Positions 10,430 to 33,712 of a stretch of DNA of 53,938 nucleotides are shown here, one piece after another. The stretch covers positions 1 through 53,938 of the IMG/VR virus record IMGVR_UViG_3300009514_000034, one strand, 5' to 3'. Below the pieces are notes generated by a model, which was not told where the DNA came from, made no database searches, and saw only the letters and a program-made list of their open reading frames with translations. Positions within the stretch are counted from its first letter, which is position 1. Every line of letters starts with the position of its first letter. Source of the DNA: a virus (taxonomy: Duplodnaviria > Caudoviricetes). Position numbers and translations under genes: made by a program.

Positions 10430-10906
10430 ATGAACAATAAAGAGAAATTTGAGAACTTTCTGGAATCCCTCAAGGGTAACGGACAAGATGTATTGATTGA
10501 ATCAGTAAAACAGGGATTTGAAGTCTGTTTTGAATCAAGTGAAAAAGAACAGGCCAATGCGTTATACAAGGAATTAGTATCAGAATATGGTAGATCGCAG
10601 GTAGATGATACTGTAAAAAAAATGCCTAAAAAAGTTGGTAGTTGGAATAAAGTTGCTTTTTTAAATGAAGTTAAAAGAGCAATTGACTCTGGAGATATAG
10701 ACGGATATATTGAAAAAGAATTGGAAATCGGTAAGGAAGTAAAGGAAAGGTCTAAAAGATCCGTGAAGGAACAATTACAAGATTTATCTGAAGAATATGG
10801 AGAAGACGAAGTTAAAGAAATTTTAGGAAAAATTGGTAAAAAAAGATTCCTTCAAAATAAAGATGAATATTTGCGTAAAATTAGACATGCTTTGGATATG
10901 AATTAA
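10430..10906 (+). CDS. Leader-family protein 1 (putative head-internal cargo)
   Basis: MNNKEKFENFLESLKGNGQDVLIESVKQGFEVCFES leader; the cargo holds a duplicated ~42-aa unit. Confidence 0.8.
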   Translation: MNNKEKFENFLESLKGNGQDVLIESVKQGFEVCFESSEKEQANALYKELVSEYGRSQVDDTVKKMPKKVGSWNKVAFLNEVKRAIDSGDIDGYIEKELEIGKEVKERSKRSVKEQLQDLSEEYGEDEVKEILGKIGKKRFLQNKDEYLRKIRHALDMN

Positions 10907-10921
10907 TAAATATTAATTCTG

Positions 10922-11881
10922 TTAAATCCAGTTATATAAATACTCAATCCCGACAGGGCGATCAACGATCCCCAGATGCATAGCCGGGGTCATAATCATC
11001 TTATATTTCTTACCCCCTTCTCTTACGGTGTAGCTTTTCTGTAAGAAGTAATTACTGAAAAATTTATAGATATTCAATCGGGCATTAAGCATTTTATTCT
11101 CTTTACAGATATGCCATGATTTCCTTCTCAGCATTGAGATATTGGCTCTCATACAGGCAATCATGTTATTCACAGAGAACAGCTTGTTTTTGTTATCAGC
11201 CACCGAAGCATCGTAGACATGGTGAACAGCCAAATCCCCAAATAACTCCTTCATGTAGCCACCATAAGCAGGTTTCTTGTCGGATTCGATAACGATCCTG
11301 CCTTCTGGTTTCATAGTTCTACAGGTCTTAATTACCCCTTTGATGTACTTATCTTTTCTCTTGATTTCAGGAGCATTTTCTGCGTTATAGGAATCTTTTA
11401 GATGGGGATAGTGGCTTCTGGATGACACTCTAACAGATTGTACATCAACCAAAAAGTGGCTATCCACTTCCACCACAGCCGGGATAGATATTGTATGTAC
11501 AGACTTCCGTTCAATGGTTTCAAACTCATCAAACTGGAATCTGGGTTTGTTTTCCCTTGTCCAGTTACCCATCATTTTCTTATGAAAATCGTTACAGTGT
11601 TTTTCCAGCCAGAGAATCTTCTTCTGGATGGTTTTCTTGGTGGTTCGGTGGAGAATACCCAGTTTCCTGACACCCATTCCCATTGAGATGGTTTCCATCA
11701 CCTTGCGGTTCAGATCGGGGCGTTTCTGTCTGTATGTTAAGTGGAAGAACTGGTCAGAAAATGACTTGAAGCAATGAGTACATTTATATCGCTGGACTTT
11801 CTGATGGTTTCTTTTGCGCTGGTAACGCCCATCTTTTCTAATTTTCTCTTTCCCACACTTAGGACAATTTTTAATTTCCAT
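10922..11881 (-). CDS. Single-ORF IS1-like transposase
   Basis: N-terminal CPKC...QRYKCTHC zinc ribbon, HTH (GMGVRKLG...KKTI) and DDE core (QFDEFET, IESDKKPAY); GC content visibly higher than the flanks. Confidence 0.82.
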   Translation of the reverse strand: MEIKNCPKCGKEKIRKDGRYQRKRNHQKVQRYKCTHCFKSFSDQFFHLTYRQKRPDLNRKVMETISMGMGVRKLGILHRTTKKTIQKKILWLEKHCNDFHKKMMGNWTRENKPRFQFDEFETIERKSVHTISIPAVVEVDSHFLVDVQSVRVSSRSHYPHLKDSYNAENAPEIKRKDKYIKGVIKTCRTMKPEGRIVIESDKKPAYGGYMKELFGDLAVHHVYDASVADNKNKLFSVNNMIACMRANISMLRRKSWHICKENKMLNARLNIYKFFSNYFLQKSYTVREGGKKYKMIMTPAMHLGIVDRPVGIEYLYNWI

Positions 11882-11910
11882 GTATAACTCTCAGACAGGG
11901 GTGCTATACT

Positions 11911-11939
11911 ATTGTACACCAATTTCACTGAGAAGTCAA
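11911..11939 (-). promoter_or_regulatory. Sigma70-type promoter of the transposase
   Basis: Minus-strand TTGACT-N17-TACAAT upstream of the start at 11881. Confidence 0.55.
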
Positions 11940-11979
11940 TTTGTTTCGTAAGTCGTTATTTTAGATTGGATTAAGAGGG

Positions 11980-12010
11980 GAAAACACCATTATACTACCC
12001 CACCCTTTTT
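11980..12010 (-). repeat. IS terminal inverted repeat (right in window)
   Basis: Reverse complement reads AAAAAGGGTGGGGTAGTATAATGGTGTTTTC. Confidence 0.8.
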
Positions 12011-12014
12011 AATA

Positions 12015-12054
12015 ATATCCCATACATAAAAAATATGTTCTATGTATGGGATAT
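12015..12054. repeat. Perfect 14-bp inverted repeat with a 12-nt loop
   Basis: ATATCCCATACATA (12015-12028) and TATGTATGGGATAT (12041-12054); the right arm contains the ATG at 12046. Confidence 0.8.
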
Positions 12055-12213
12055 AAAGAACCCCCACATTCAGAAGCTGGTATCATATACATGCCTTATA
12101 TAGGGGCTATTTTTACCGAATTAGGACCCCCAACACAACCTAATTACCCAAATGATGATGTACCTTCTGATGATTACTATGCGGATATTGAAGAAGAAGA
12201 AGATAACTTTTAA
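12046..12213 (+). CDS. Mini-ORF or gene remnant copying the capsid C-terminal GYKG...MPYI motif, absent from the ORF track
   Basis: 55 aa, MGYKEPPHSEAGIIYMPYIGAIFTE versus capsid VGYKGPRQGESGIIFMPYIPYIFTK, followed by an acidic tail. Confidence 0.55.
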   Translation: MGYKEPPHSEAGIIYMPYIGAIFTELGPPTQPNYPNDDVPSDDYYADIEEEEDNF

Positions 12214-12262
12214 TGAAAAATAAAATATTTTTAATATAAACATATTAAAAACGGAGTATGTA

Positions 12263-12802
12263 ATGGAAGAATTTAAATTTGGTGAATCATATCAAGAAAA
12301 GCCACAAGAAGCCAATCAAGCCCCAAAAATGGAAAATTATAATCCTAATGATGGCTTAGGACAGCCGGGAGTAGACCCCAATAACATCCCCCAGCCCCAG
12401 TTTCTGGACCTTAATAATCCCCAGAATTTCAGCAATGTTGGTAATAACCCACAACAGCAACAACCTTATATGCCACAATATCAGGTTCCTCAACAACCAA
12501 CGGGACCTAACTTTGAGGGAATTAAAGATAAAGCTGGAATGGGTTCTAAAATAAATAGCATAATGGAAATGGGTGATAAAATTGATGTCGATGTTAATAC
12601 AGGAGATTCTGCCGTAAATTCTGGTAAATATGGTATAACAAAAGCTGTAAGTTCTTTACATGAAGCTATTAAAATGTTAAAGGATATTGATTACTGGATA
12701 CCCAAGGGTAAAGAAGAGTATGCCCCACAATTAAAAAAGATTTCCCAGCCTATCACTAAGGCACTGGAAGCATATGTAAGTAAGGTGGAATCCCTAAGCT
12801 AA
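12263..12802 (+). CDS. Hypothetical late protein with a Q/P/N-rich N-terminus
   Basis: 179-aa ORF; TATAAACA at 12235-12242 and a GGAG RBS. Confidence 0.7.
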   Translation: MEEFKFGESYQEKPQEANQAPKMENYNPNDGLGQPGVDPNNIPQPQFLDLNNPQNFSNVGNNPQQQQPYMPQYQVPQQPTGPNFEGIKDKAGMGSKINSIMEMGDKIDVDVNTGDSAVNSGKYGITKAVSSLHEAIKMLKDIDYWIPKGKEEYAPQLKKISQPITKALEAYVSKVESLS

Positions 12803-12862
12803 ATTAATTTTATAGTATTCATATTATAAACTTATGGTAAGGATACTCATAAGGAACATAAT

Positions 12863-13351
12863 ATGTCGTTTTACGGTCAAGGTAATTTTAAACTCAAGCA
12901 CGAATATCGTGATTTTTACACCGATGTTCAAAGAAATACTGAAAGAATAGGTGATACTGGTAAGTCAAGCGAAGAATTCAAAGACAGGTCATATGACCAG
13001 TTCAAAATGCATGACTTCAATGAATTAGCTAAAAATCAGGATAAATTCACACCCCCCGATGAAATGTACGGAACCATCAAACGTGATAATTTCAGAAATT
13101 ATAACAGGATGGAATATGATAAACCTGAACGTCACGATGGTAAAGAGCATGCCGATGTTAAAAAGGAAGTCGAAGCTAAAACTGAAGTAACCGTTGATAA
13201 GTTACTGAATGCTTTCGAAGACCAAGGTTATACTCTAAACAGCACCGCAAGCACTGTTAAAAATACGCCAATTGAAAAAGATGACTATGATGGTCAGATG
13301 AGATTGGTTATTCTGGATAGCGATAAAGAACAACCTACGAAAAGGATATAA
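12863..13351 (+). CDS. Hypothetical late protein
   Basis: 162-aa ORF; TATAAACT at 12825-12832 and an AAGGA RBS. Confidence 0.7.
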   Translation: MSFYGQGNFKLKHEYRDFYTDVQRNTERIGDTGKSSEEFKDRSYDQFKMHDFNELAKNQDKFTPPDEMYGTIKRDNFRNYNRMEYDKPERHDGKEHADVKKEVEAKTEVTVDKLLNAFEDQGYTLNSTASTVKNTPIEKDDYDGQMRLVILDSDKEQPTKRI

Positions 13352-13816
13352 ATGAATTATAAAAAATTTAAGAATTTTTTAGAATCCCTGAAAGGACACG
13401 GGAAAGATCCCTTGATAGAATCTATCAAGCAGGGATTTAAAGCATGTTTTGAATCTATTGAAGATGAGGCTGATAAAGATATCGAAGCATACTTTGATAA
13501 AAAAGTTCCTCCCGATATTCAAAGGTTAATAAATCAGGCCACTACAGATTTATACACGGGTCCTTTAGAAGAGGAAGATTATCCCGGATTTCAAACGGCT
13601 TCTGCAAAAATACAAGAATGGGTTGATAATGAACTATCCGAAGTGTGGTATGATACCCAATCAGGATATGTTTCTGAAGAAAAACCTAAAGGATACGAAG
13701 ATGAAGATAGTGGAGAATGGGTAGAACCCTTCTGGGAAGACTATTATCATTATGATAAGAAACATGTAGTACAATTAGTTTTAGGAAATGAATTAGCCAA
13801 TACATTATATCGATAG
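13352..13816 (+). CDS. Leader-family protein 2
   Basis: MNYKKFKNFLESLKGHGKDPLIESIKQGFKACFES leader; acidic, aromatic-rich cargo. Confidence 0.8.
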   Translation: MNYKKFKNFLESLKGHGKDPLIESIKQGFKACFESIEDEADKDIEAYFDKKVPPDIQRLINQATTDLYTGPLEEEDYPGFQTASAKIQEWVDNELSEVWYDTQSGYVSEEKPKGYEDEDSGEWVEPFWEDYYHYDKKHVVQLVLGNELANTLYR

Positions 13817-13824
13817 GATTTATT

Positions 13825-14172
13825 ATGAATAAAATAAAGAAGTTTGAAACCTTTTTAGAATCCCTTAAAGGACAGGGACAAGATTCTTTAATTGAATCCG
13901 TTAAAAAAGGATTTAAAGCTTGTTTCGAATCTTTTAATGAAGAAAGTATGAAAGATGCTATTTTAAACTGGACTCGTGGAGCTGATAATCCAGTTACAAA
14001 TCCATTTCCTTTAGGACAATTATTGGCCGGAACTACTAGCAGAGATTCTGGAATATTTAAAATGAAACGTGGTCCTAAATTGTATTACTACATACAAAGA
14101 CACAAATGGGACGATGAAACCAAAACTCTTAACGAACTTGAGTCCCCCATTGTAACTTTGGAGCCTGCTTAA
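13825..14172 (+). CDS. Leader-family protein 3
   Basis: MNKIKKFETFLESLKGQGQDSLIESVKKGFKACFES leader. Confidence 0.8.
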   Translation: MNKIKKFETFLESLKGQGQDSLIESVKKGFKACFESFNEESMKDAILNWTRGADNPVTNPFPLGQLLAGTTSRDSGIFKMKRGPKLYYYIQRHKWDDETKTLNELESPIVTLEPA

Positions 14173-14260
14173 TGAACAAGATAGAAAAATTTGAAACCTT
14201 TTTAGAATCCCTTAAAGGACAGGGACAAGATTCTTTAATTGAATCCGTTAAAAAAGGATT
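13843..14260 (+). repeat. 71-bp identical direct repeat (13843-13913 and 14190-14260)
   Basis: The leader-coding DNA TTTGAAACC...AAAAAAGGATT is identical in genes 3 and 4. Confidence 0.9.
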
Positions 14261-14549
14261 CAAAGTATGTTTTGAAAATGAAGAATCCAGCTTAAAAGAT
14301 GAAATGAAATCATATTTGATACAAACATATAGTGGATTAATGGATACAACTGATGATGGTTTTAATTTTGATATGGAAGCTGCTATTTATTGGTTTGCTA
14401 ATCATTATCATGGAGGTCAATGGTCCGAGCTATACAGCATATTATCAACTTCTCAATATAATCCCGGTAGAATGGTCAACGGACCTGAAGACGAAGGAGA
14501 ATCTACAAAAATGATGTATGATTCTCTTGTAGATAAATACGGAAAATAA
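14172..14549 (+). CDS. Leader-family protein 4
   Basis: MNKIEKFETFLESLKGQGQDSLIESVKKGFKVCFEN leader; the cargo contains AIYWFANHYHGGQWSELY. Confidence 0.8.
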   Translation: MNKIEKFETFLESLKGQGQDSLIESVKKGFKVCFENEESSLKDEMKSYLIQTYSGLMDTTDDGFNFDMEAAIYWFANHYHGGQWSELYSILSTSQYNPGRMVNGPEDEGESTKMMYDSLVDKYGK

Positions 14550-17500
14550 TTATAAAATATCCCTAACATCAGGGGTATTTTCGTTCTGAATCTCTTTAAT
14601 AGTTCTCTCTACAGTAGCATCTCCCTGTAATTCTTCGATAACGGGTTTCTCTCTGGTAAGTTTAGCTTTCTGGATACCCTGTAATTGGGCGTTAGAAACC
14701 AGCTTTTCAAATACAGATTGATTCTCATTCCTATCCTGTTCAGGATCAAAATCTATATCTTGGTTAACTTCTTCAATGTTAGGTCCTAGTCCCCTTACAG
14801 TTCCGTCATTAGTTACTTTCTGATCATTTATTTTCATTTTCTGAGTCATATCTTTTACTTCTTCTGGGGTAAGAAGTTCTCCAGAATCATTTTCAATTAA
14901 TGTCTGGGTTCTGATTATTCCAAACTCATTTTCAATTAAATTAATCTGGTCGGCATTGGGGCTTTCCAAGAAATTATCGTATAGAAAATCAATATCCAGA
15001 TTTTCAATTAATTCTTTTATTTCGTTGTATTCTTCTACTATACTATCCTTAACTATGATATGTAATAACAGTGCATCTTCCCCAATGGGTTCACCCGCTT
15101 CATTGTAGCCGGAAATTACCGGAGCATCCGATGTAATTATTTCTAAAGGCTGAACTTCTTCTGGTACAAAGACACCTTGACTGTTGTATCTTCCAAACTG
15201 AACACTATCTTCATTAATCTGTTTTTCCCCGAATGTGTTCCCGTTTCCCTCGGTATTTAATGAACGAACATCCGCTACTGGGATAGAAATTTTACCGTCA
15301 TGTAATGTTATGTAGGACGTATCTCCGCTGTCCTTTATAAATATTTTTATATTTTGGTACTCTTCTTCTCCCAGAAATTTTACCACGAAATCAATGGGGT
15401 TTGTTTCGGCCACACTACTGATTAAGTAATCAAACTTTTCAATATAATCAGAAGAAAGAATTCCACGAACGGCATTGAAATCTCCTATAAGCGAATAATA
15501 ATCCACCAGTTGCTGGAAAGAAATTGGATTTTTAGCCTTCCATTCTGGAACAGTTCCAATTAATCGTCTGCCGTGCGCATGCATCTTCTGCCTAACCATG
15601 AATAAAAATTCCTGTATATCTTTTAATACAAGGTTACTTGGAGTATTAAATTGATTTATGTCCTGTGGGGAAACATATCTTTCTCCGTTAATAACTATGG
15701 CATCCTGATAGGCCGTGCTACTTGCTCTTATGTATGGTTTATCATCATCGATTTCAACATCATCAACAATAACATATCCTCTCTGGTCCACATTTACGTA
15801 AGCATTGGCAACGACAGGATCTTGTTGGTTAAATGCTGCCTGTCTGAATTTCCAAGCATCCATGTGCTTTATTCCTATGGGAAGAAATTCCCATACAAAT
15901 AAATCGGGTCCCATGACCAATTGAGCACACCAGATAACGTTCATAGGTTCCCCGAATTTTCCCAGTTTAGCCCCCTCAATAAAGGCAGTTGATACATCAA
16001 CCAATTTACAAAACTCTTCTTCGTCACCTTCTTCAATGGGAGTTACGCCATCCTCTTTTGTAATTAATATTTTTACAGAAAGGCCATAATTATGCCATGA
16101 AAGAAAACTGCTTGAAGTTCCGCCCGTCTGTAAGTTTTCCTGTGATTCCCATGAACGGGTGGTTTCTATTAACTTTACCCTGCTGGGATTAAACTCAGAT
16201 TTTAGTATCTCCAATAAAAACTGAACCTTGTTATAAACATCCACTCCCTTTCTTAAATCCGAAATTTCTTTACTACTTTCATGAAAAATCTCGTGGCCTG
16301 CGGGAATTTCGCTGAGTTGTACTGTGGTATCGTTATTGGTTGATACTGTTATAGGTAATTCTCCTTCTCTGGAAGAAAATTCTGATTGATCAAAAGGGCC
16401 ATAATTAAAATAAGCTTCATCCCTTAAATCATCATCAAAAGGAAGGTGGGGCATGTTAAATACTATTTCAACATCCTCACGGGATATATCTGGCTGTGTT
16501 TCATCCAGAGGATTTATAACAGAGTTAAGAGTTGCGCTTCCGGTAGGGTCTGGTGTATTGGCTAATTCTTCTTTAGATAATTCTAACGAATATGACAATG
16601 TATTATCATCTATAATATTCGGTCTGAAAAATCCATTGTATATGGCTTGATCTATTCCAGAAATTTCTATCTGTAAAGTGTCTTCAGTGGCCATATGAGG
16701 TTCTTCAGTTACTACAAGAACATGTCCAGCAATAGGTTCAACTCTACTTAATGTTATGGTAGAATCTATGGGGTTTTCAATTAAATTAACCCCAGCTTCT
16801 CTTTCATTGGGTCTGAATAAAGATAAAACTCGGGTATCAATAAATCTCAATTCAACCCACCTGACACCGTTGTCAATTCTTTTATATCTGGCTCTCCTGA
16901 ACCATCCCCTTCTTCGAGTTCTTATTGTCTTAATACCAAAATCAACGGGCAATAAAATTCGGGCTAATTTTATGTTAGGATTATTTTTCTCTACTAATCT
17001 TCTTTTATCATTCTTAGTATTATTGTCTATTAACATATCTTTGTTTTCGAATATTGATTCACTGGTAAATCTTTCATACCATTCAATCTTTTTAATTAGT
17101 AATTCGAATTCATTTGTTCTGGTCCTGATATCAGATAATGCGAAGTTAGTAAATATGCCGGATAATACCCCAGAAAATCCCTTGAACTGTGTGTTTATCT
17201 TTTTGATGTTTTCAACCAATTCAATGGGGTCGAATCCGGGGGTAATTACAAGATCCTGTTCTTTTATTATTGATATTACGCCATCATCATTCTCTGGTAA
17301 TTTGCTCAACATATCATCAATCGGAGAATCAGAATTAGTATCCAGTGTGGAAGAAGGATCTATTTCGAGTAAATTTATATGTCTAAGTTCGGGGGTCAGT
17401 GTATTTTCTGGAATAAATGATATATCTACCAAGTTACTCTTACCTGTCGGATCGAGTACGTGTTTGCCGTCTTGGCCTATCAGAAATTTCCCCTGATGAA

Positions 17501-18554
17501 CTACAGGATTTCCTGTTTTCGGATCTATCAAGGGTCTGGGATTGCTTGTAAAACTTTTCTGTAATATTTCTTTTATTTCATCAAAGAACCTACCTGCGAA
17601 GGGCATTGAATCTATGGCAGTAATTAAGTTAGAAATACTGGTGATTAACTGATTTCTTAAATCATTAGCAGAATCAAATTGGGCTTTGAAAACTTCTTTC
17701 ACAGACATGTGTACGGGCGAAATATTTTCGCTATCAATTTCCGTTAATAATCTTCCTATAAATGCGTTGCCTGCTGTTATTGATGTATTGAAATTATCTG
17801 CCCTAGTTACCCCGGATGCATTAATATCATTTGTCCCAGAAGGCTTTGATTCAAGAAATTCAGTAACCAGTACATCAATACCTACTGAATTTAATTTATC
17901 CTTTAATCTTTTCAATGAATCAGTATAAAATTGTCTGGTTATATATCCGGCTGCGTCATTATCACTAATGCCCATTTTAAAAGCAGGGGTTAATGAAGGT
18001 ATGTCATATCTCCCCCTGTCAGTTATTGTAAAATCATTTGTATCCCACATTCCAAGGGCTGCATAAACTTCTCTGTCAATTAAAGGCCCTCTGGTAGAAC
18101 CCAGAATATCATCCTTCATTTTGTTGTGCTGGGGCACAATGGGAATTTCGTAAGATACTACTTCCAGATTTTCATCTATCCCGGCAGAAAATAATGTTGC
18201 TGCTTTGGGGGTTCCTGAACTATCGGCAGAATCTCTGTAATTTATCTGCTCTACAAGGTCTACAACGGGTTCCCCCCTTAAATGTACAATGGCTTCGGAT
18301 GCTTCAGTACCAAATCCGGTAGAAGGGTCTGTAGATACTTCAAATCTCTTTACATCCCGCTCAAATATAAAATTAACCTTATCGTCAATAATTTGGTTGA
18401 GATTAATGTCTTCTACTTCCCCGTCTTCATTGACATTAATGTTGGCTCCGTCAGCCCTTACGTTTAAACCGGATAAATCTAAGTTTAAATCGTTCTCAAC
18501 GGTTATTTCTTTTCTATAGTTATTAAAATCAATTTCTGCCATGTATAGTCTCAA
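14550..18554 (-). CDS. Large putative virion (tail/baseplate) protein with a degenerate M15-peptidase-like domain
   Basis: 1334 aa. LIETTRSWESQENL...SWHNYGLSVKI resembles M15 peptidases. Late motif on the minus strand at 18572-18579. Confidence 0.6.
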   Translation of the reverse strand: MRLYMAEIDFNNYRKEITVENDLNLDLSGLNVRADGANINVNEDGEVEDINLNQIIDDKVNFIFERDVKRFEVSTDPSTGFGTEASEAIVHLRGEPVVDLVEQINYRDSADSSGTPKAATLFSAGIDENLEVVSYEIPIVPQHNKMKDDILGSTRGPLIDREVYAALGMWDTNDFTITDRGRYDIPSLTPAFKMGISDNDAAGYITRQFYTDSLKRLKDKLNSVGIDVLVTEFLESKPSGTNDINASGVTRADNFNTSITAGNAFIGRLLTEIDSENISPVHMSVKEVFKAQFDSANDLRNQLITSISNLITAIDSMPFAGRFFDEIKEILQKSFTSNPRPLIDPKTGNPVVHQGKFLIGQDGKHVLDPTGKSNLVDISFIPENTLTPELRHINLLEIDPSSTLDTNSDSPIDDMLSKLPENDDGVISIIKEQDLVITPGFDPIELVENIKKINTQFKGFSGVLSGIFTNFALSDIRTRTNEFELLIKKIEWYERFTSESIFENKDMLIDNNTKNDKRRLVEKNNPNIKLARILLPVDFGIKTIRTRRRGWFRRARYKRIDNGVRWVELRFIDTRVLSLFRPNEREAGVNLIENPIDSTITLSRVEPIAGHVLVVTEEPHMATEDTLQIEISGIDQAIYNGFFRPNIIDDNTLSYSLELSKEELANTPDPTGSATLNSVINPLDETQPDISREDVEIVFNMPHLPFDDDLRDEAYFNYGPFDQSEFSSREGELPITVSTNNDTTVQLSEIPAGHEIFHESSKEISDLRKGVDVYNKVQFLLEILKSEFNPSRVKLIETTRSWESQENLQTGGTSSSFLSWHNYGLSVKILITKEDGVTPIEEGDEEEFCKLVDVSTAFIEGAKLGKFGEPMNVIWCAQLVMGPDLFVWEFLPIGIKHMDAWKFRQAAFNQQDPVVANAYVNVDQRGYVIVDDVEIDDDKPYIRASSTAYQDAIVINGERYVSPQDINQFNTPSNLVLKDIQEFLFMVRQKMHAHGRRLIGTVPEWKAKNPISFQQLVDYYSLIGDFNAVRGILSSDYIEKFDYLISSVAETNPIDFVVKFLGEEEYQNIKIFIKDSGDTSYITLHDGKISIPVADVRSLNTEGNGNTFGEKQINEDSVQFGRYNSQGVFVPEEVQPLEIITSDAPVISGYNEAGEPIGEDALLLHIIVKDSIVEEYNEIKELIENLDIDFLYDNFLESPNADQINLIENEFGIIRTQTLIENDSGELLTPEEVKDMTQKMKINDQKVTNDGTVRGLGPNIEEVNQDIDFDPEQDRNENQSVFEKLVSNAQLQGIQKAKLTREKPVIEELQGDATVERTIKEIQNENTPDVRDIL

Positions 18555-18616
18555 CTACTAACATATTTAATAGTTTATAATTAAAATATTGCTTATTTTA
18601 ATTAAAAATATGTTTT

Positions 18617-19144
18617 TTATTCCAAATCTCCCCAATCAAGGGAATCTATATTTGGCATGGAAGACTGATTATCGGTGATAAACTCCTGATCTTCAGATGT
18701 AGTGTCTTCATATGAAAAATTCTGGTTAAATAATACGGTATTTTCTGAGTATTGCTTACATTTTCGCCAACTTTGGATGAAAGCATTTCCAATTATCATG
18801 GCAAAATAATTATAGGGGTCGTTTTTACCACTTTTAGATTTTTCGGGGTCAAAATTGTGGGCATATTTAAGTACATGTTCTATAGCTCTTCCCCGAAATT
18901 CTTCTTTCCAGTCTTCAGAGTATCTTCGCCAAGAACCCGATCCTAACATCTTGTCTACTATAATAATAACAATTTCAGCCAAATCTCTGGGCATGGAATA
19001 ACTGGGATTTAATTTCTTTTTCCACTTATAATCCATTACCAGTCCCAGCAGGTATTTTTTCTCAATCCTGCCGTTTCGCATTTCGGCTAGTTTAATTTCT
19101 CTTTCTGAAAAGGTTACTTTTTCGTTTTTCTTTGGTCTTCCCAT
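18617..19144 (-). CDS. gp55: Late transcription sigma factor (T4 gp55-like), copy A
   Basis: WKEEFRGRAIEHVLKYAHNFDPEKS...PYNYFAMIIGNAF matches the gp55 NFDPEKS..NPFAYFTQII..AF motif; acidic C-terminal tail. Confidence 0.8.
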   Translation of the reverse strand: MGRPKKNEKVTFSEREIKLAEMRNGRIEKKYLLGLVMDYKWKKKLNPSYSMPRDLAEIVIIIVDKMLGSGSWRRYSEDWKEEFRGRAIEHVLKYAHNFDPEKSKSGKNDPYNYFAMIIGNAFIQSWRKCKQYSENTVLFNQNFSYEDTTSEDQEFITDNQSSMPNIDSLDWGDLE

Positions 19145-19149
19145 ATCTG

Positions 19150-19539
19150 TTACAAAGGTTTATAATCACTCACAAGTTTATTACATTTTTCTATAAATTT
19201 TCTGTATTTAATATCCCAATTCCGTGTTTTCAAGAATGCGCCTATCATAATCACCGTAAACCAATTATAAGGATCTGGTTTTTTATTTTGTTTTATGGCG
19301 TGATTTGGATCGAATCTATCTGCATATTTAACGGCATAAAACAAGGCATTGCTTTTCATGTCCTCTTTTTCTTCGGAGGAATATTTTCTCCAAGTGGTGC
19401 GACTAAGAAGTCTATCTATAATATAAATAAGATACTCGCCCAACTCATCGGACATTGAGCATTGATTATCAATATTCTTATTCTTTTTATATTCGACTAC
19501 AAGATCAAGTAAATGTTGGTTATCCACACAAGGCTCCAT
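19150..19539 (-). CDS. Shorter gp55-like paralog, copy B
   Basis: WRKYSSEEKEDMKSNALFYAVKYADRFDPN...DPYNWFTVIMIGAF aligns with the adjacent gp55. Confidence 0.7.
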   Translation of the reverse strand: MEPCVDNQHLLDLVVEYKKNKNIDNQCSMSDELGEYLIYIIDRLLSRTTWRKYSSEEKEDMKSNALFYAVKYADRFDPNHAIKQNKKPDPYNWFTVIMIGAFLKTRNWDIKYRKFIEKCNKLVSDYKPL

Positions 19540-19555
19540 ATATTTGATGTAAGGA

Positions 19556-20215
19556 TCATGATAATCTATTCTCCTTTACATCCTCTAAGAAAGTAGTTAA
19601 ATAATCGAATAATGTTTCGTCCCTAAAATCGGTCATATACATTATCGAGAATTTTTTCCCCATAACTGTCTCCAAATTTTCATAACACTCCAACATATAC
19701 TTAAACTGTTCATTCAAATTTGAATGCCTTTCGTTTATTGGTATGTCTTCGTATTTTGAATCTTTTTCGTACAGCCATATTTTCCCCGCTATATGAAATA
19801 TTGATTCCCCTGTGTAAAAATACCTATATACTAATGACTCCTTAACATCAATAGTATCGTAGGATATTATGTTGTCTATAACTTCTTTGTATTCGGCATA
19901 GAAAGTTGAGTAAGCATTGTCTATAAAAAGCATTTGATACATTATATTTATCCATGCTATATTTATATCATGATATATCATCTGAAACGAAACTGGAAAT
20001 GTTGGCGGATAAGCATCCTTGTATTTTTCCAGATCATTATGGATTAGCTTGTGATAAATATTAGTATTATCTTTTCTGCGCTTATTTTCTATGTCATTGA
20101 AATAATCCAAAATCAAGATGTTATCAGTATTTTTTGGATCATATACCTGTGATTTTCTATGAAGTGCTGGCACATCATAATTCCCATCTATGTAATTATA
20201 AGGAAAGTCTTTCAT
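19556..20215 (-). CDS. Hypothetical protein
   Basis: 219-aa ORF in the minus-strand operon. Confidence 0.65.
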   Translation of the reverse strand: MKDFPYNYIDGNYDVPALHRKSQVYDPKNTDNILILDYFNDIENKRRKDNTNIYHKLIHNDLEKYKDAYPPTFPVSFQMIYHDINIAWINIMYQMLFIDNAYSTFYAEYKEVIDNIISYDTIDVKESLVYRYFYTGESIFHIAGKIWLYEKDSKYEDIPINERHSNLNEQFKYMLECYENLETVMGKKFSIMYMTDFRDETLFDYLTTFLEDVKENRLS

Positions 20216-21126: not shown

Positions 21127-21205
21127 GTTATCTCATAACTATAAAGGTAGAAGTTAAACTCCCACCTTACATATAAGATATTTTATTTAAGCGAATAAAC
21201 TAAAA

Positions 21206-23413: not shown

Positions 23414-23419
23414 ACATAA

Positions 23420-24727: not shown

Positions 24728-24733
24728 CCTAAA

Positions 24734-25768: not shown

Positions 25769-25822
25769 ATAATTAAAATCTAAATTATTTTTTTTATAAA
25801 CTATATGTAAATGGAGTGTTTT

Positions 25823-25966
25823 ATGGACAAACAAGCTGAAGAATTAAAAAAGAAAAAACAAAAACTCAATATTAATCAAAACATTAACAAGTTGAATCCC
25901 AATGGTGTTCAAATTATTAATGAACAGATTCGTGTAGATCAAAATCAGACTGCCCTTTATGGATAA
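25823..25966 (+). CDS. Small late ORF, absent from the ORF track
   Basis: 47 aa, MDKQAEELKKKK...TALYG; TATAAACT at 25795-25802, a GGAG RBS, and overlap with the next start codon. Confidence 0.55.
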   Translation: MDKQAEELKKKKQKLNINQNINKLNPNGVQIINEQIRVDQNQTALYG

Positions 25967-26282
25967 ACCTAAAAAATTCAATAGTTTTCTGGAATCCCTG
26001 AAAGGTAAAGGGCAGGATAAACTGATCGAATCTATTAAACATGGATTCCATGTATGTTTCGAAAATGAAATGATGGACATGGTAAAGAAAGAAACTGCAT
26101 TTAAAGAAAAGATGGAAAATCCGTCTGAATATGATGATATAAAAAATATCACCCAAAACATTGAAAGGGGCGGAGATGTCCTTCATCAACACGTTATGGA
26201 TAAGAAAAAATATATGCAAATTTATCAGGTATATAAGCTGCTGGATCAATATTTTTCCGAATTTGAAAAGGAAATATCATGA
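25959..26282 (+). CDS. Leader-family protein 5
   Basis: MDKPKKFNSFLESLKGKGQDKLIESIKHGFHVCFEN leader. Confidence 0.8.
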   Translation: MDKPKKFNSFLESLKGKGQDKLIESIKHGFHVCFENEMMDMVKKETAFKEKMENPSEYDDIKNITQNIERGGDVLHQHVMDKKKYMQIYQVYKLLDQYFSEFEKEIS

Positions 26283-26761
26283 ACAAAATAGAAAAATTTA
26301 AAAAGTTTCTCGACTCCCTGAAAGGACATGGACAAGATACATTGATTGAATCTGTTGAAAAAGGATTTCAAGCATATTATGAAAGTCAGATGGAAATGTC
26401 TGATAGAAGAGGACATTACATAACAACCACCTATGAAACATGGGATGAAGAATCCACTGAAATAGGAGACACTGATGATAAAGGTTGGTATGATGAAGAG
26501 GGTCAATCTATGGAAGCAGATGATTTTGATAGAGAAGAAGGGAAAACAGTTATTGATAATACTGTAGAATTCCTACAAGATAAGGGAGCAACTGAGGGTA
26601 ATGAAGAAGGAATGAACGCTGCTCCTAGATGGTGGAGTACCGTATATCCTGAACATGATAGAGATTTTTTTGAAAAGGGTGAAAGTACATATTATTCATT
26701 CCATTTAAATAATTATACCGAAGAAGAAAAAAAAGAAATATATAGAAGAATGAAATCTTAA
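26279..26761 (+). CDS. Leader-family protein 6
   Basis: MNKIEKFKKFLDSLKGHGQDTLIESVEKGFQAYYES leader; acidic cargo. Confidence 0.8.
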   Translation: MNKIEKFKKFLDSLKGHGQDTLIESVEKGFQAYYESQMEMSDRRGHYITTTYETWDEESTEIGDTDDKGWYDEEGQSMEADDFDREEGKTVIDNTVEFLQDKGATEGNEEGMNAAPRWWSTVYPEHDRDFFEKGESTYYSFHLNNYTEEEKKEIYRRMKS

Positions 26762-28596: not shown

Positions 28597-28650
28597 AATA
28601 ACTTAAAATATAAGTTATTATGTTATCGATTAGTATAATGGGTGGATGGG

Positions 28651-29412
28651 TTAATATTTCTGCTTTTCTTCCATGAATAATTCCATGATAGAAATACCTT
28701 TTTCTTTCGCCCTTCTATGTAATTCATTGGAAAATGTTTCATCCCATGTAACTCTAGAATGATTTCTTAAATATTCATTTCCATTTATAAGTCCCAGTTT
28801 CAATACTCTTTTTAATACATCATTATTAATGTTTACCATTAATTGCTGATTGTACAGTCGATCCTGTACTTCAGAAGACTCTACATACATATCTCTGGCT
28901 TTATCATAATATTTTCCCTCTTTACGGTCATAATAATAATCACCTATTGTATGTTCCAGATCGGGATCTCCTGATATCGATTCAAGTTTAGGATCTTTAT
29001 GTTGATGTTTTCTGAATTTCTTCCAAGATCTATCAGCACCCTTCATGTCCAGCTTCCTGTCTTCCTTCCAATAATCATGTTCCGATTTTTTCTGTGCGGT
29101 GGGTGATTGTTCAATACCTTTACCAGCATCAATATCTACAGTAACATCTGGATCTTTTTCAGGGGGGTCGTAGTTATAAATATGTTCTTCTTCATCAAAT
29201 TCATCGTCATCATCAGTTTCTGAGCCACCTAAATATTTGACATAATCTTCTGTATAACCTTCATCATATTCGTCAGTGTATACTTCAGCTTCTCTTGGTA
29301 GTACCGTTTCCATACATGCACGGAATCCCTGTATTACAGATTCGATCAACCCATCCTGTCCTTTACCTTTTAAAGATTCTAGGAATTTTTCGAATTTTTT
29401 TATTTTATTCAT
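28651..29412 (-). CDS. Leader-family protein 7
   Basis: The likely start is 29412: MNKIKKFEKFLESLKGKGQDGLIESVIQGFRACMET, followed by a multi-segment cargo. Confidence 0.8.
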   Translation of the reverse strand: MNKIKKFEKFLESLKGKGQDGLIESVIQGFRACMETVLPREAEVYTDEYDEGYTEDYVKYLGGSETDDDDEFDEEEHIYNYDPPEKDPDVTVDIDAGKGIEQSPTAQKKSEHDYWKEDRKLDMKGADRSWKKFRKHQHKDPKLESISGDPDLEHTIGDYYYDRKEGKYYDKARDMYVESSEVQDRLYNQQLMVNINNDVLKRVLKLGLINGNEYLRNHSRVTWDETFSNELHRRAKEKGISIMELFMEEKQKY

Positions 29413-29428
29413 TATATTTCCCTTTAAA

Positions 29429-29893
29429 CTAACTATAACCAGCACTAGAAATTGCTTTCAATGTAACATCTTCGATAAAATCATTATTTACATTTAATGT
29501 ACCTACCGATTCTGCATTGTCATCATGAACTTCAACATCGTATGGTATACTATATTGATCAGTAGTTCCGCTTACATACAATTGAGGATCTTGTATGTTA
29601 TAATTTTCACGAATGTCATTTATTTGTTTCATTATATCAGGATATTTCTTTTGAAAATATTCATTTAATTTAACATGTGCTTTAAATGTAACATAATCTA
29701 GTCTTCCATTAGGTCCCCTTCCATCATCCTCTTCTACTGGATTAAACTCATAGTCATAATTTTTATCGAATTCAAATCTTTCAACTCCTTCATAACATGC
29801 ATGAAACCCCTGCTTTAAAGATTCAAGCAATGTATCCTGACCATTCCCCTTCAGGGATTCTAGGAAGGTTTCAAATTTTTGTTTTTTATTCAT
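29429..29893 (-). CDS. Leader-family protein 8
   Basis: MNKKQKFETFLESLKGNGQDTLLESLKQGFHACYEG leader; late motif at 29914-29921 on the minus strand. Confidence 0.8.
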   Translation of the reverse strand: MNKKQKFETFLESLKGNGQDTLLESLKQGFHACYEGVERFEFDKNYDYEFNPVEEDDGRGPNGRLDYVTFKAHVKLNEYFQKKYPDIMKQINDIRENYNIQDPQLYVSGTTDQYSIPYDVEVHDDNAESVGTLNVNNDFIEDVTLKAISSAGYS

Positions 29894-29927
29894 GATATGT
29901 CCTTATTTTCAATAGTTTATAATTACT

Positions 29928-30965
29928 TTATTTCCCCAATAAGTCGTTCACATCATCAGAAACATCAGATTCTTCCTTATCTTTCTCCAGTGTTTTCTTC
30001 TTTTTAACTTCATTTTCTTCATCAATAATTTCTTCGGTTTCGGTTTCCGGGGGTTCTCTTAATTCATTTTCTTCATCAATAATATCCTGAGCATCATCTT
30101 CCGTAACATCAGGTTCACGTTCTTCATTTTCCTCATCGATAATATCCCCGGCTTCTTCAGGAACTTCCCTTGAGATTTCTTCAGGCTCGTCTCTTTCCTG
30201 AATGATTTCCTCAGAACCCTGATTTTCCTGACTTTTCTGAAGTTCATCGGTGGCTTTTTCCAAGGGTTCAAGAAAATCTTCTTTTACATCTTGGGTAACT
30301 TCCACCAATTCAACATCCTTATTCAGTGCTCTTTTACCGTCATCCAGATCTCTGGAGATTTCATCATTAATTTTTATATTATTATCAAAGGTTTTCGCAT
30401 CTTTCATTATAGCCTTGGCGTTGTTTCCAAATTCATATACGACAGCCAGTAAATGCTTACACATTATATGTTTTCTTTCGGGATCTCTCTTATCGGGTGC
30501 GTGAGTAACCACGGTTTTTTCATATTTGTGTCCAGCATTATGTCCGGGAGAAAGGGCATTTTTATAATCCCCCTTGGGACCCAGATTATATTTCATACCG
30601 CTCCAATAAAAATCTTTACAGTTACAGTACACCTTAACTTCTGATTCTGCAAAAGCATCAGAAACAGCAGCGACACTTTTTCTCACACCCTTATGTTTTC
30701 TGGCCACGCCAAATAATCCCCCAACCACGGGAACATGGAATTCAACTATACATTCATAATCTTGTGTACCTGACTGACTGGGAACTGCCCAGTGGGTTCT
30801 GGCATGCCCGGATTGTCCCTGATCTAAAAAAGCATATACGGCAGTAAGGTCAAGAGATCTGGTTCTTCTACCATCATCTGACATGTCATGTAAATCCATT
30901 AAACTGTATTCCATCAGGGGATACATTTTCTTGGCGTTTTCTACGAGTCGGTTTATATTAATCAT
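29928..30965 (-). CDS. SWIM-type zinc-finger protein with an acidic repeat tail
   Basis: VYCNCKDF...MCKHL and three IIDEENE repeats. Confidence 0.65.
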   Translation of the reverse strand: MININRLVENAKKMYPLMEYSLMDLHDMSDDGRRTRSLDLTAVYAFLDQGQSGHARTHWAVPSQSGTQDYECIVEFHVPVVGGLFGVARKHKGVRKSVAAVSDAFAESEVKVYCNCKDFYWSGMKYNLGPKGDYKNALSPGHNAGHKYEKTVVTHAPDKRDPERKHIMCKHLLAVVYEFGNNAKAIMKDAKTFDNNIKINDEISRDLDDGKRALNKDVELVEVTQDVKEDFLEPLEKATDELQKSQENQGSEEIIQERDEPEEISREVPEEAGDIIDEENEEREPDVTEDDAQDIIDEENELREPPETETEEIIDEENEVKKKKTLEKDKEESDVSDDVNDLLGK

Positions 30966-31758
30966 TTTTATGGAAAAAATCCTTTACGGCTTGAGACATG
31001 TTAAATAAATAGGGGTCTTCCTGATAAGGAAGCTTCAGTACCACGGCATATTTTTTAGGAGAAACCTGAATGGAAAATATTTGTTCATTATGGGCGGGGT
31101 CCATCTGGATATAAGGGACCTTTCTCACTTCTCCCGTTGGTTTTTTTGTTTTTTTATCCTTGATTTTATATGCTGGATCAGGAATCATTTCAACTTCTTT
31201 ATCATCATCCATCCTTTTATACATGGTCAATATGAACTTCCCTGAATTGTATGAAAACCTGTTTAGTCTGGGATTGAAGCATCTTATCTTCTTTGAATTT
31301 TTATCAACGTGGGGCTTGAGACAATAAAGCCCTTCTCTTTCAAGTTTTTTCCAGTTTTCACTGTTCAGAATAATTTTAACTTCCTGTGGGGTGAACATAT
31401 CAGAAATGGCCTGTAATCCCTGTTCATCGATATTTATAAAGTTATTATCATAAAGAATTGCCTTGACCCCGAAGTCCGTGGCAAATTTTACCGTACTTTT
31501 TTCCTTTTCCGGTTTTTCCTGTTCTTCTTTCTCTTTTTCCTCTTTCTGTTCGATTTGCTGGTAAATTCTTTCTTTCCGTTTGGCCTTGGGTAAAATCGGA
31601 ACTTCCCCCTTCGAAGTGATATCCTCAATATCCATCATATTGGGAAGTCTGGTGTCTTCCATAATGGATTCAATTAAACTTTCATTGAAATGTCTGGTTT
31701 TTTCAGAAAATCTGGCCTTTTCGGATTCCAAAAATGATAATAACTGGGATTTTTCCAT
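30958..31758 (-). CDS. Hypothetical late protein with a divergent leader-like N-terminus
   Basis: MEKSQLLSFLESEK...ESLIESIME; late motif at 31765-31772 on the minus strand. Confidence 0.65.
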   Translation of the reverse strand: MEKSQLLSFLESEKARFSEKTRHFNESLIESIMEDTRLPNMMDIEDITSKGEVPILPKAKRKERIYQQIEQKEEKEKEEQEKPEKEKSTVKFATDFGVKAILYDNNFINIDEQGLQAISDMFTPQEVKIILNSENWKKLEREGLYCLKPHVDKNSKKIRCFNPRLNRFSYNSGKFILTMYKRMDDDKEVEMIPDPAYKIKDKKTKKPTGEVRKVPYIQMDPAHNEQIFSIQVSPKKYAVVLKLPYQEDPYLFNMSQAVKDFFHKND

Positions 31759-31922
31759 ATCTAAAGTTTATACTTTTATCTAAAATAAATCATTTAAAAG
31801 GGAAAACATAAAGGGACAGCCCCCTTCCTCCTCCTAGTCCCTTGGTTTGCAAAATATGAATTTTTAAGGTAAGAGAAAAAATATATGTCTCTTTTAGAAT
31901 TAATAATTTAGATTTCATTTAA

Positions 31923-33344
31923 ATGAAAGAATCTAAAAATATCAAAAAAGCTATAGAAATCCCCGAATCTTTCCTTAAAGATTTAAAGATTTGCTTAGAC
32001 CTGCACCCCCCAGAATTTTCATTTAAGTATGATTTGGATCATTTTCTCTACATAGCCAGTAAAATCATACACATCAAGACATTTAAGAAATTTTCAAATT
32101 TGAAAAAAGTGCCTATCTCATCCGTGGTACTCAGATTCGAGATAGGTAAGCATTACAGGCGGTATCTTGAATACCTGCTAAAATACAAGTTCATAGAAAC
32201 AGATAATCATTACATTGTAAAATCTGAAGACAGGGAAGGTAAATGTAAGTGTTATTGTTTCTCCAGAAGGTATGCCAGTAAGGGGTATGAGAAATATGAA
32301 ATCACCAAAAAATCATTATTAAATAAAATAGAGTCTTGGAAGCATAGGCAATTCGGTAAAATGATAAGCGATGATATGCTATCTCACCTTTATTCCATGA
32401 TGAATAAAATAACCATCGACATGGATGCTGTTAAAATTTACCTATCTGAAGCTGTGAAAAGCAAAGCAATCACCCAGCGGAAGGCCAATATTGAACTCAG
32501 TAAGTGTGAGAAAATAAATGACAAGGAAACCAACCTATTTTTAACTAAGGATTCCTATGGCAGGGTTCATACCAATTTCACCAATATCTCCAAGCACATA
32601 AGGGAGAATTTTCTTTCTTTACATGGAGAAAAACTGGTTCACTTGGATATCATTTCTTCTCAGCCAGCTATGCTTTATAATTTATTCAAGGATTACCTTA
32701 TGGAAGTTCTTGATATTGTCGAAAAAAGACAGGAGGATGAGTATTATACTTCTCCGAAAGAATATAAGTGGAAAGGTGTTGATGTAAGGGATAAATATGT
32801 TAATAAGTCAAACAGTTATACTGGTAAGCATATTTACAGTAATAAGTTCATGCCAGTGGTGGAAAAACACGGCGAGGACTCGTACATGGATTTACTGGAA
32901 AAGGGTTTTGAAGAATTGACTTTTTATAAAAAATCTTTACAGGCCGATATATATGAAATTTTCCGTGATTCTTGGAAGCATTATTTCGGGGAGGATAGAA
33001 CCAGAAAAGAAATGAAACAGGAGTGGGTTTCCTATGTATTCGGTCAGAATAATTCTCCCGGTCATGATAAGTTTAAATATTTATGGGATGAAGAGTTTCC
33101 CATACTGAATAAAATTTTGAAGAATTTTAAAAATGGTAATCACAAACCTCTGTCTCATGAATTACAGAGAAAGGAATCTGATCTGGTTTTTAATAAATTG
33201 TGTCCCAAGATTGATAATATGAATATTGATTATTTCACAGTACATGACTGTGTAGTGGTGCCGGAATCAGTAGCTGATGATGTATATAATGTTTTCAGTA
33301 AAATCTTAAAAGAAAATAACGTTGTTACGGGTGTGGATTACTGA
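31923..33344 (+). CDS. Family-A polymerase-palm-like protein (no exonuclease domain seen)
   Basis: YGRVHTNFT, LDIISSQP (motif A-like), RKEMK (motif B-like), LQRKES and TVHDC (motif C-like). Confidence 0.6.
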   Translation: MKESKNIKKAIEIPESFLKDLKICLDLHPPEFSFKYDLDHFLYIASKIIHIKTFKKFSNLKKVPISSVVLRFEIGKHYRRYLEYLLKYKFIETDNHYIVKSEDREGKCKCYCFSRRYASKGYEKYEITKKSLLNKIESWKHRQFGKMISDDMLSHLYSMMNKITIDMDAVKIYLSEAVKSKAITQRKANIELSKCEKINDKETNLFLTKDSYGRVHTNFTNISKHIRENFLSLHGEKLVHLDIISSQPAMLYNLFKDYLMEVLDIVEKRQEDEYYTSPKEYKWKGVDVRDKYVNKSNSYTGKHIYSNKFMPVVEKHGEDSYMDLLEKGFEELTFYKKSLQADIYEIFRDSWKHYFGEDRTRKEMKQEWVSYVFGQNNSPGHDKFKYLWDEEFPILNKILKNFKNGNHKPLSHELQRKESDLVFNKLCPKIDNMNIDYFTVHDCVVVPESVADDVYNVFSKILKENNVVTGVDY

Positions 33345-33712
33345 GTATTCCATTCTCTAACTAACGAATCAATCATATCAGAAGCATGTCCCAAGGTTTT
33401 TAATAAATCTGCTACTTGTTGTTCTTCGATATTAGGAAGTTTTTTATGTAATACATAATAAAGAATTTTTGTTTTAGCATTGATTTTACTTAATGTGTCA
33501 GTTAATGGACGTATATCTTGTATTCTTCTTTCAGAATCTTCCAACTGTTCGGGAGATAAGTTATTTCTAACAGGTGGGTTTACACCGGGAGGAAACATAT
33601 CCATGTTTTCATAACATGTCTGAAATCCTTGTTTTACAGTTTCAATAAGTTCATCCTGACCTTTTCCTTTCAGGGATTCTAAAAAATTCTCAAATTTTTT
33701 GATATTATTCAT
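33338..33712 (-). CDS. Leader-family protein 9
   Basis: MNNIKKFENFLESLKGKGQDELIETVKQGFQTCYEN leader; late motif at 33743-33750 on the minus strand. Confidence 0.8.
   Translation of the reverse strand: MNNIKKFENFLESLKGKGQDELIETVKQGFQTCYENMDMFPPGVNPPVRNNLSPEQLEDSERRIQDIRPLTDTLSKINAKTKILYYVLHKKLPNIEEQQVADLLKTLGHASDMIDSLVREWNTQ

Follow-up and report, generated by a model that had tools for sequence, protein, structure and literature searches.

The stretch of DNA analysed here (the window) is an entire virus record of 53,938 bases, IMG/VR entry IMGVR_UViG_3300009514_000034, with an estimated completeness of 14%. It carries nine genes whose products begin with a common leader of 35 residues and continue into mutually unrelated cargoes, and the leader may well serve to target these proteins to the phage capsid. 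The nine leader genes are:

10430..10906, plus strand: leader gene 1, 158 amino acids (leader 1-35, cargo 123 amino acids), with its own TATAAAC box at 10394-10400
13352..13816, plus strand: leader gene 2, 154 amino acids, leader of 34 residues with a one-residue deletion; follows the open reading frame (ORF) 12863-13351 (TATAAAC at 12825)
13825..14172, plus strand: leader gene 3, 115 amino acids, recognized by leader alignment and profile
14172..14549, plus strand: leader gene 4, 125 amino acids, recognized by leader alignment and profile and modelled with AlphaFold 2 (AF2)
25959..26282, plus strand: leader gene 5, 107 amino acids, in a unit behind TATAAAC 25795
26279..26761, plus strand: leader gene 6, 160 amino acids, overlapping the end of gene 5 by 4 nucleotides
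28651..29412, minus strand: leader gene 7, 253 amino acids counted from its ATG at 29412, located downstream of gene 8
29429..29893, minus strand: leader gene 8, 154 amino acids, with its own TATAAAC at 29915-29921 on the minus strand
33338..33712, minus strand: leader gene 9, 124 amino acids, with its own TATAAAC at 33744-33750 on the minus strand

A preliminary description of this DNA had pointed to nine ORFs with these starts, a shared leader of about 35 residues, a likeness that ends after the last Glu, and dissimilar cargoes of about 70-220 residues, and each of these points was borne out. All nine ORFs are present at their positions, and in an alignment of their products all 16 invariant columns fall within residues 1-35 and none past Glu35. 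Comparison of a leader profile with the six-frame translation of the window gave exactly nine matches (E 6e-27 to 3.5e-24; next best 0.44), and a broader profile built from 230 distinct leaders recovered the same nine. The cargoes measure 72-218 amino acids, with a best pairwise BLASTP E value of 0.87. The ORF 30958-31758 on the minus strand (266 amino acids) was considered as a divergent tenth member and not counted, since the leader profile matched it only with E 1.9. This ORF lies behind a TATAAAC box and shows FLES and LIES, spaced by 19 residues, within its first 31 residues; it may be another protease substrate.

Among the paralogs the leader DNA is 66-81% identical, apart from the pair 13825/14172 with 93%. 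At identical residues with degenerate codons, 320 of 816 pairwise comparisons (39%) differ in codon, which argues for selection on the peptide and against recent duplication. Judged by these codon differences, the leader is under purifying selection as a peptide and not as DNA. The upstream DNA of the leader genes cannot be aligned apart from the TATAAAC box.

The leader is not confined to this phage. A profile search of 1.84 billion representative proteins (clusters at 50% identity) returned 279 matches at E≤1e-3 and 147 at E≤1e-10, and in 129 of the 150 best-matching proteins the leader starts within the first five residues. For the position of the boundary we took these best 150 without the repeat protein P0099 and three rows starting inside the leader, and set aside 12 of the remaining 146 rows because of insertions or deletions, leaving 134 leaders in register. 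Information content reaches 4.1-4.3 bits at F7, F10, L11, K15, L22, E24, G29 and E35. After Glu35, which has 4.13 bits, it drops to 1.65 at position 36, where the residues are Ser (42), Asn (30), Gly (22) and Ala (19), and to about 0.3-0.5 from position 37. Glu24 is kept in 132 and Glu35 in 131 of the 134 leaders, and L22-I23-E24 is near-invariant. The drop after Glu35 therefore sets the end of the module exactly to the residue, directly after a Glu. Behind it the diversity is large: of the 149 cargoes from the best 150 leader proteins (P0099 excluded), 140 have at least 30 residues, and these form 111 BLAST groups (E≤1e-3), 95 of them singletons.

The preliminary description had suggested a leader-profile search for variable cargo and copy number, and among the hundreds of proteins found both indeed vary. 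Across 37 metagenome loci (160 kb) the profile detected 88 leader copies, with tandem arrays of up to six leader genes, each with a different cargo, in contigs of about 4-5 kb. The 54-kb window holds nine copies, compared with four weaker ones in a 165-kb relative that carries a homolog of the scaffold protein of the window phage (1.8e-103). One protein, P0001, represents two fused leader genes: its decayed internal leader retains its Glu between two cargoes, and a stretch that includes this leader, residues 123-244, aligns at 54% identity (7e-43) with the product of 14172-14549 in the window (its residues 11-123). A short sub-family begins at the first conserved Phe and reads FLN-S, with Asn in place of Glu12, while keeping L-I-E24 and F-E35; its cargoes are larger (313-517 amino acids). 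In P0088, P0109, P0137 and P0142 a basic stretch of 39-54 residues precedes the leader, and in P0088 this extension resembles the alternative ribosome-rescue factor ArfA (3.9e-6, just above the cut-off). P0099 itself, a metagenomic protein of 281 amino acids, consists of five tandem 59-residue repeats resembling leader positions 7-30 (F..AL.SYKGEGRDT.FES..KG; E about 1e-4 per repeat), so that relatives of the leader fold may occur as repeat units of other proteins.

A match to a known stand-alone domain had been named beforehand as evidence that would speak against a targeting function, and we found none in Pfam, PHROGs, NCBIfam or the PDB. Neither the leader nor the nine proteins reached the thresholds of curated families (best E 0.022 in Pfam and 0.0055 in PHROGs, no hit in NCBIfam), and against PDB sequences the leader profile gave no meaningful match (best E 0.013 over 10 residues). 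In a collection of 5.8 billion proteins all leader matches were metagenomic, one of them with an NCBI source, and the only name attached was "hypothetical protein". Likewise, a literature search returned no description of the family, supplements and figures lying outside what could be inspected.

The leader genes are linked to the head genes by the TATAAAC box. This motif occurs 24 times in the window compared with 14.75 ± 3.94 expected, a count reached in 2 of 100 shuffles, and 18 of the 24 boxes have a same-strand gene start at most 90 nucleotides downstream (62 genes listed). The preliminary description had placed such a box in front of every leader locus and of the head genes. The latter part was confirmed, as the portal gene, the core/protease/scaffold unit and the capsid gene all carry one. 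The former holds for transcription units: the first gene of all five leader units has a TATAAAC upstream, and the box stands directly upstream of only three of the nine leader genes (at -36 of 10430, -28 of 29893 and -38 of 33712). The other six lie downstream in units whose first genes carry it (for example, 12825 before 12863 and 25795 before 25811). In the 37 metagenome loci a TATAAAC lies within 80 nucleotides upstream of 45 of the 88 leader hits, with 0.03 expected per window, and 37 of 46 boxes sit at -25 to -48, most often near -36. Further boxes in the window precede the genes for the baseplate wedge, a 1334-amino-acid protein and one late sigma factor, as well as the ORFs 2377, 12263 and 30958-31758 of unknown function. 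We take TATAAAC to resemble the T4 late box TATAAATA, which is presumably read by gp55, and the leader genes would then be expressed late together with the head genes. Sigma-70-type promoters were also considered and are not enriched around the leader genes (14 compared with 18.2 expected). A second box, TTTATATTT, occurs 17 times compared with 4.75 ± 1.95 expected (reached in 0 of 100 shuffles; examples on the plus strand at 8778, 35980, 36578, 44838, 47739 and 52093). It fronts the genes for helicase, single-stranded DNA-binding protein (SSB) and homing endonuclease and several unknown ORFs, and never leader or virion genes.

The head module that goes with the leader genes, and the candidate late sigma factors, are:

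3451..5085, plus strand: portal protein, gp20-like (phrog_213, 7.9e-70), TATAAAC at 3435
5117..5293, plus strand: 58-amino-acid ORF between portal and protease, TATAAAC at 5099, heading the protease/scaffold unit
5283..6047, plus strand: prohead protease, Peptidase_S77 (T4 gp21 family), the presumed processing enzyme
6059..6949, plus strand: scaffold/core protein at the gp22 position, 296 amino acids, long-helix, assigned from gene order and its homolog family
7270..8700, plus strand: major capsid protein, gp23-like (phrog_138, 9.2e-72)
18617-19144 (175 amino acids) and 19150-19539 (129 amino acids), minus strand: gp55-like late sigma factor paralogs (phrog_234, 4.3e-17 and 2.1e-14)

The order of portal, 58-amino-acid ORF, protease, 296-residue helical protein and capsid protein presumably matches the T4 order 20-67/68-21-22-23, and the 58-amino-acid ORF would sit where T4 has genes 67/68. 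The protease matches Pfam Peptidase_S77 with 4.4e-22 (79 bits, cut-off 27) and phrog_207 with 1.1e-36, and aligns to the T4 gp21 structure 5jbl (3.8e-17). It has His and Ser in two columns where the crystallised T4 chain has Ala; we take the crystal form to be an inactivated enzyme, in which case His and Ser of the window protease would be catalytic. The capsid protein matches T4 gp23 (1.6e-30) and has about 30-33% identity with its counterparts in many T4-like phages. Its residues 2-43 align with residues 3-42 of T4 gp23, within the N-terminal propeptide of 65 residues that is missing from the mature PDB chains (456 compared with 521 residues). In the propeptide of the window protein we find the Glu motifs V-L-E18|S, L-L-E39|N and L-P-E51|S, the last of which (LPE51/S52) is the candidate maturation site. 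Between the scaffold and capsid genes lies a stand-alone copy of this propeptide, a 54-amino-acid ORF (6949-7113, plus strand; 38% identity over 52 residues, E 9e-8) that ends approximately at the candidate cleavage site and could be a free propeptide-like core component or the relic of a rearrangement. The two gp55-like sigma factors are the presumed readers of the TATAAAC box. The box fronts only the downstream one of their two adjacent genes, and two sigmas could mean two classes of late promoters.

The leader has three Glu sites, F-L-E12|S, L-I-E24|S/N/T and C-F-E35|S/N/G/A, spaced by 12 and 11 residues. The preliminary description had proposed all three as cleavage sites; Glu24 and Glu35 proved nearly universal, and FLE/S did not, being FLN-S in the short sub-family. 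Across 37 homologs of the scaffold protein the most conserved Glu sites read L-V-E53|G/S/N, I-x-E69|S/N, L-L-E95|N/S/G and x-F-E237|S/N, and in these alignments the leader sites follow the same local pattern. L-I-E24 also agrees with the T4-type motif of a hydrophobic residue, any residue and Glu. In T4, phiKZ, 201phi2-1 and SPN3US the proteases of the gp21 family share cleavage behind the Glu of a short motif, and a site of this kind, LIE-9, is present in T4 gp21 itself (PMC9026906, PMC5694885). The conserved Glu motifs of leader, scaffold and capsid protein are thus putative cleavage sites. Several motifs in a long propeptide are thought to yield fragments small enough to exit the head (PMC5694885).

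The AF2 model of the leader of gene 14172 shows a helix at residues 3-13, a loop at 14-19 and a second helix from residue 20, with predicted local distance difference test scores of 91-95 over residues 1-30. A Foldseek search of this model against the PDB gave no match. With hhalign, leader residues 3-28 align weakly to scaffold residues 44-73 (KF..LVE, four extra residues, IVESVK; P 0.022 and 0.01), and when the scaffold columns were shuffled, one of 80 shuffles reached the observed score of 18.1 (null mean 11.4, standard deviation 2.3). The similarity of leader and scaffold is therefore suggestive only.

Most cargoes lack any family assignment. Where Pfam assigns one, ART-PolyVal domains are found in P0081 (6.1e-10, above the cut-off) and, over nearly the full profile, in a 438-amino-acid protein (L024:4259-5575; 3.5e-20). 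A GNAT domain occurs in a 410-amino-acid protein (L043:7113-8345; 2.4e-5, above the cut-off), and one leader-protein cargo has a PEGA domain. P0137, initially guessed to be the ADP-ribosyltransferase (ART) protein, turned out not to be it. ART and GNAT domains have been described in polyvalent proteins that enter with the injected phage DNA (PMC7824862), and Alt of T4 is an ART packaged in the head (PMC9026906). In composition the 149 cargoes are acidic (19% Asp and Glu compared with 12.9% Lys and Arg), and none of the nine window cargoes has a hydrophobic run of more than four residues. For the cargo of gene 29412 (residues 40-253), a word-based search of limited sensitivity found only the protein itself, and BLAST among the representatives ties it to three other leader proteins. 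In the ESM Atlas the cargo of gene 14172 had no usable feature match and only structural neighbours of low value.

We consider it reasonably probable that the 35-residue module is a long capsid-targeting propeptide. This reading is based on the exact boundary at Glu35 and the occurrence of one leader on many unrelated cargoes; on an S77 protease, a gp23-like capsid protein with propeptide, a portal and a scaffold in T4 order; on a Glu pattern in the leader that equals that of the scaffold; on the TATAAAC box common to virion and leader genes; and on the ART-PolyVal and GNAT cargoes, the variable copy number, the P0001 fusion and the confidently modelled leader. The leader genes would be transcribed together with the virion genes from TATAAAC (gp55-type) promoters. 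The helix-loop-helix leader would then bind the prohead core during its assembly, with the gp22-like scaffold as the most likely partner, and the fused cargo would thereby be enclosed. Once activated, the S77 prohead protease would cut after Glu35, and probably also after Glu24 and Glu12, setting free the native cargo and leaving the tag as peptides of about 12 residues. The cargoes would remain inside the head and reach the host along with the DNA, serving as effectors of host takeover or counter-defence. We infer each of these steps, namely binding to the core, cleavage, presence in the virion and injection, from sequence.

Several observations weigh against this reading. The leader is longer and far more conserved than a T4-type tag requires, Glu12 is dispensable, as it is Asn in the short sub-family, and position P3 of the last site is Cys and not Leu or Ile. 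In 21 of the best 150 proteins the module begins later than residue five. Among them are the repeat protein P0099, some proteins whose start is probably mis-called, a Met standing where the leader begins, and about ten that lack a Met at that point. Moreover, in the relative L013 a module without the last Glu ends a protein of 241 amino acids. The window cargoes have isoelectric points of 4.1-6.6, and T4 internal proteins are described as basic and DNA-associated (PMC9026906). The likeness of leader and scaffold is weak (P 0.01-0.02), and the aligned scaffold stretch is modelled within one continuous helix (19-96) and not as a hairpin. Compared with the starts of the T4 ipI, ipII and ipIII products, only M1, Q5 and F7 of the leader coincide in register, which is not significant and is backed by neither profiles nor BLAST. 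Four ORFs of unknown function next to replication genes (48982, 50532, 51613 and 53061) likewise have a TATAAAC in front, so that the late timing itself is presumptive. Finally, neither a leader protein nor the scaffold had a tblastn match among 50,697 GenBank phage records, and thus no cultured relative was found. The packaging and injection model of the preliminary description is partly supported: it gains from the spread of the leader, the T4-type protease and head module and the ART and GNAT cargoes, while the acidic cargoes and the sometimes internal or C-terminal module depart from it.

Part of these observations could be explained if the module were a permanent, uncleaved adaptor that docks effectors onto one partner outside the capsid, such as host RNA polymerase, a chaperone or a phage hub, and that acts in the producing cell. 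Strong conservation over 35 residues, with F7, F10, L11, L22, E24 and G29 near-invariant, and a confidently predicted helix-loop-helix would suit a specific binding domain and exceed what a T4-type tag needs, and both the internal or C-terminal copies and the acidic cargoes, unlike T4 internal proteins, would be accommodated. We nevertheless rate such an adaptor as rather unlikely: it leaves unexplained why the module stops at an invariant Glu with a small residue behind it and no conserved linker, and why three Glu sites copy those of the scaffold in a phage with a Glu-specific prohead protease. It also does not account for the promoter box that leader genes have in common with virion genes, and ART and GNAT cargoes suit injected effectors. 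Improbable, though more credible than the two explanations treated next, is that the proteins are packaged via the module and that it is kept or partly trimmed to serve later, during exit through portal and tail or in placement within the infected cell. The evidence for packaging is the same here as for a cleaved propeptide, and a dispensable Glu12 and the C-terminal copy without the last Glu in L013 would fit. However, Glu24 and Glu35 are found in nearly all members (132 and 131 of 134), with a small residue after Glu35, and the homologous protease removes propeptides of head proteins in T4 and in phiKZ-like phages (PMC9026906, PMC5694885).

Recent gene duplication or a recombination cassette might also have left the shared start as a mere trace, with no function of the peptide itself. 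The 93% identity of the 13825 and 14172 leaders and the P0001 fusion, which shows that leaders join in rearrangements, could be read in this way, but the synonymous divergence of the other pairs (66-81% DNA identity, 39% codon differences) contradicts it, the peptide is conserved over 279 clusters that otherwise lack any likeness, and upstream DNA is unconserved except for the TATAAAC box. We hold this explanation to be very improbable. Least credible of all is a secretion or membrane-targeting signal: apart from the N-terminal position of the module in most members, nothing points to it, as the leader is amphipathic and charged without a hydrophobic core, no cargo has a hydrophobic run of more than four residues and the module also occurs internally.

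Within the capsid-targeting reading, the leader could be a miniature copy of an assembly segment of the scaffold (residues about 44-73). Its carriers would be co-polymerised into the core as pseudo-scaffold and cut at the same Glu sites, and the leader would be this giant-phage lineage's general portable encapsidation tag for more than 100 effector families. We regard this extension as speculative and its being correct as unlikely. If true, it would provide a ready-made catalogue of counter-defence and host-takeover proteins, among them ADP-ribosyltransferases, an acetyltransferase and numerous acidic proteins without known function, and even the weak scaffold likeness suggests, in a form open to testing, how such tags might engage the core.

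The closest known parallel is the capsid-targeting sequence in the T4 internal proteins Ip1-3 and in Alt, an N-terminal tag common to otherwise unrelated proteins. As in T4, a gp21-family protease that cuts after Glu accompanies a core of gp22 type and a shell of gp23 type, the genes lie dispersed over variable regions, and ADP-ribosyltransferase, which Alt is too, is represented among the cargoes. The translated T4 ipII and ipIII products start with a 10-residue tag and the ipI product with a 19-residue tag. That such a tag lets T4-like phages load varied proteins has been published before (PMC3012670, PMC9026906, PMC12373910); the loading-tag principle is thus established for Tequatrovirus. 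All three T4 internal proteins are specific inhibitors of GmrSD restriction enzymes (PMC12373910), and residues 4 and 7 of the T4 tag are reported as those that matter for targeting (PMC9026906). In contrast to the T4 sequence of 7-19 residues with one site, the leader has 35 residues, a predicted helix-loop-helix and three Glu sites, and is sometimes internal or C-terminal. Its cargoes are acidic and fall into hundreds of clusters, unlike the basic T4 internal proteins, of which about ten are reported, and it belongs to an uncultured lineage with an estimated genome near 400 kb. We do not claim homology to the T4 tag, because the likeness is limited to M1, Q5 and F7.

In phiKZ-like giant phages (SPN3US gp53/gp54, phiKZ gp93), a homologous protease acts on N-terminal propeptides of head and ejection proteins, which exceed those of T4 in length and hold several x-x-Glu motifs, and paralogs with a conserved N-terminus vary in number, resembling the leader family (PMC5694885). 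However, the shared start comprises 15 residues there, the paralogs are related over their full length and the motif is A/S-x-E (PMC5694885), whereas here one module stands on unrelated cargoes next to T4-type head genes. A second parallel is P1 DarB, an injected anti-restriction protein whose N-terminus of about 30 residues suffices to send a foreign protein into a myovirus capsid (PMC9024508). Unlike the leader family, DarB is a single protein whose loading depends on other Dar proteins, and removal of its signal by an S77 protease is not described in the available part of that article (PMC9024508). Polyvalent proteins have cargo domain types in common with the leader proteins, namely ART-PolyVal and GNAT (PMC7824862). 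They string many domains together in one giant protein, whereas here the payloads are encoded one by one in small genes, each with a tag copy, a combination of a constant trafficking part and variable payloads that resembles polymorphic effector families. Comparable principles may be represented by MuF-linked polymorphic toxins, the cargo-loading peptides of encapsulins and the helix-turn-helix coat-binding end of the P22 scaffold.

New, in comparison, are the structured 35-residue module with three sites itself, which is absent from every family library searched, the extent of its spread (279 clusters and 111 cargo groups at the least), its occurrence in an uncultured T4-like lineage of about 400 kb, its acidic cargo set and its possible derivation from a scaffold. 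If the capsid-targeting reading is true, the 35-residue profile offers a means of searching for the proteins that are injected together with the DNA of uncultured giant phages. Injected proteins of this kind encounter host defences before any other phage molecule, and at least 111 unrelated cargo groups, almost all unannotated, have already been found. In addition, the leader would provide a second tag, defined in structure, by which foreign proteins could be loaded into T4-type heads, and which is of interest to phage-based delivery.

By its gene content, the window is a fragment of an uncultured phage of the T4 superfamily; it also encodes a UvsX-like recombinase, a DnaB-like helicase, an SSB and a baseplate wedge subunit. 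IMG/VR relatives of 45-165 kb are rated 11-39% complete, and a contig of 412,973 bases carries the scaffold homolog P0207, because of which the complete phage genome probably measures near 400 kb. A scan of GTDB species genomes gave one match, a partial one covering leader residues 5-26, on a contig of 16.6 kb from a metagenome-assembled genome. No public sequencing runs covering positions 10350-14600 of the window were found, RNA runs included.

Other genes of the window deserve brief mention. Directly after the capsid gene lies a homing/HNH endonuclease of 512 amino acids (8805-10343, plus strand; phrog_3339, 1.2e-117), and leader gene 10430 is flanked by a 319-amino-acid protein with a transposase-like zinc-finger N-terminus (10922-11881, minus strand; phrog_1191, 7.3e-7); mobile elements therefore adjoin the head module. 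The 1334-amino-acid ORF (14550-18554, minus strand), with a TATAAAC in front and without a Pfam or PHROGs family, is likely a large virion protein. A repeat-rich protein of 303 amino acids (20215-21126, minus strand) looks pentapeptide-repeat-like by eye, and its PHROGs matches are to families of unknown function only (best 1.5e-12). Also by eye, the product of 37912-38922 (plus strand) is DnaJ-like, with the HPD motif of a J-domain and a CxxCxGxG zinc-finger region.

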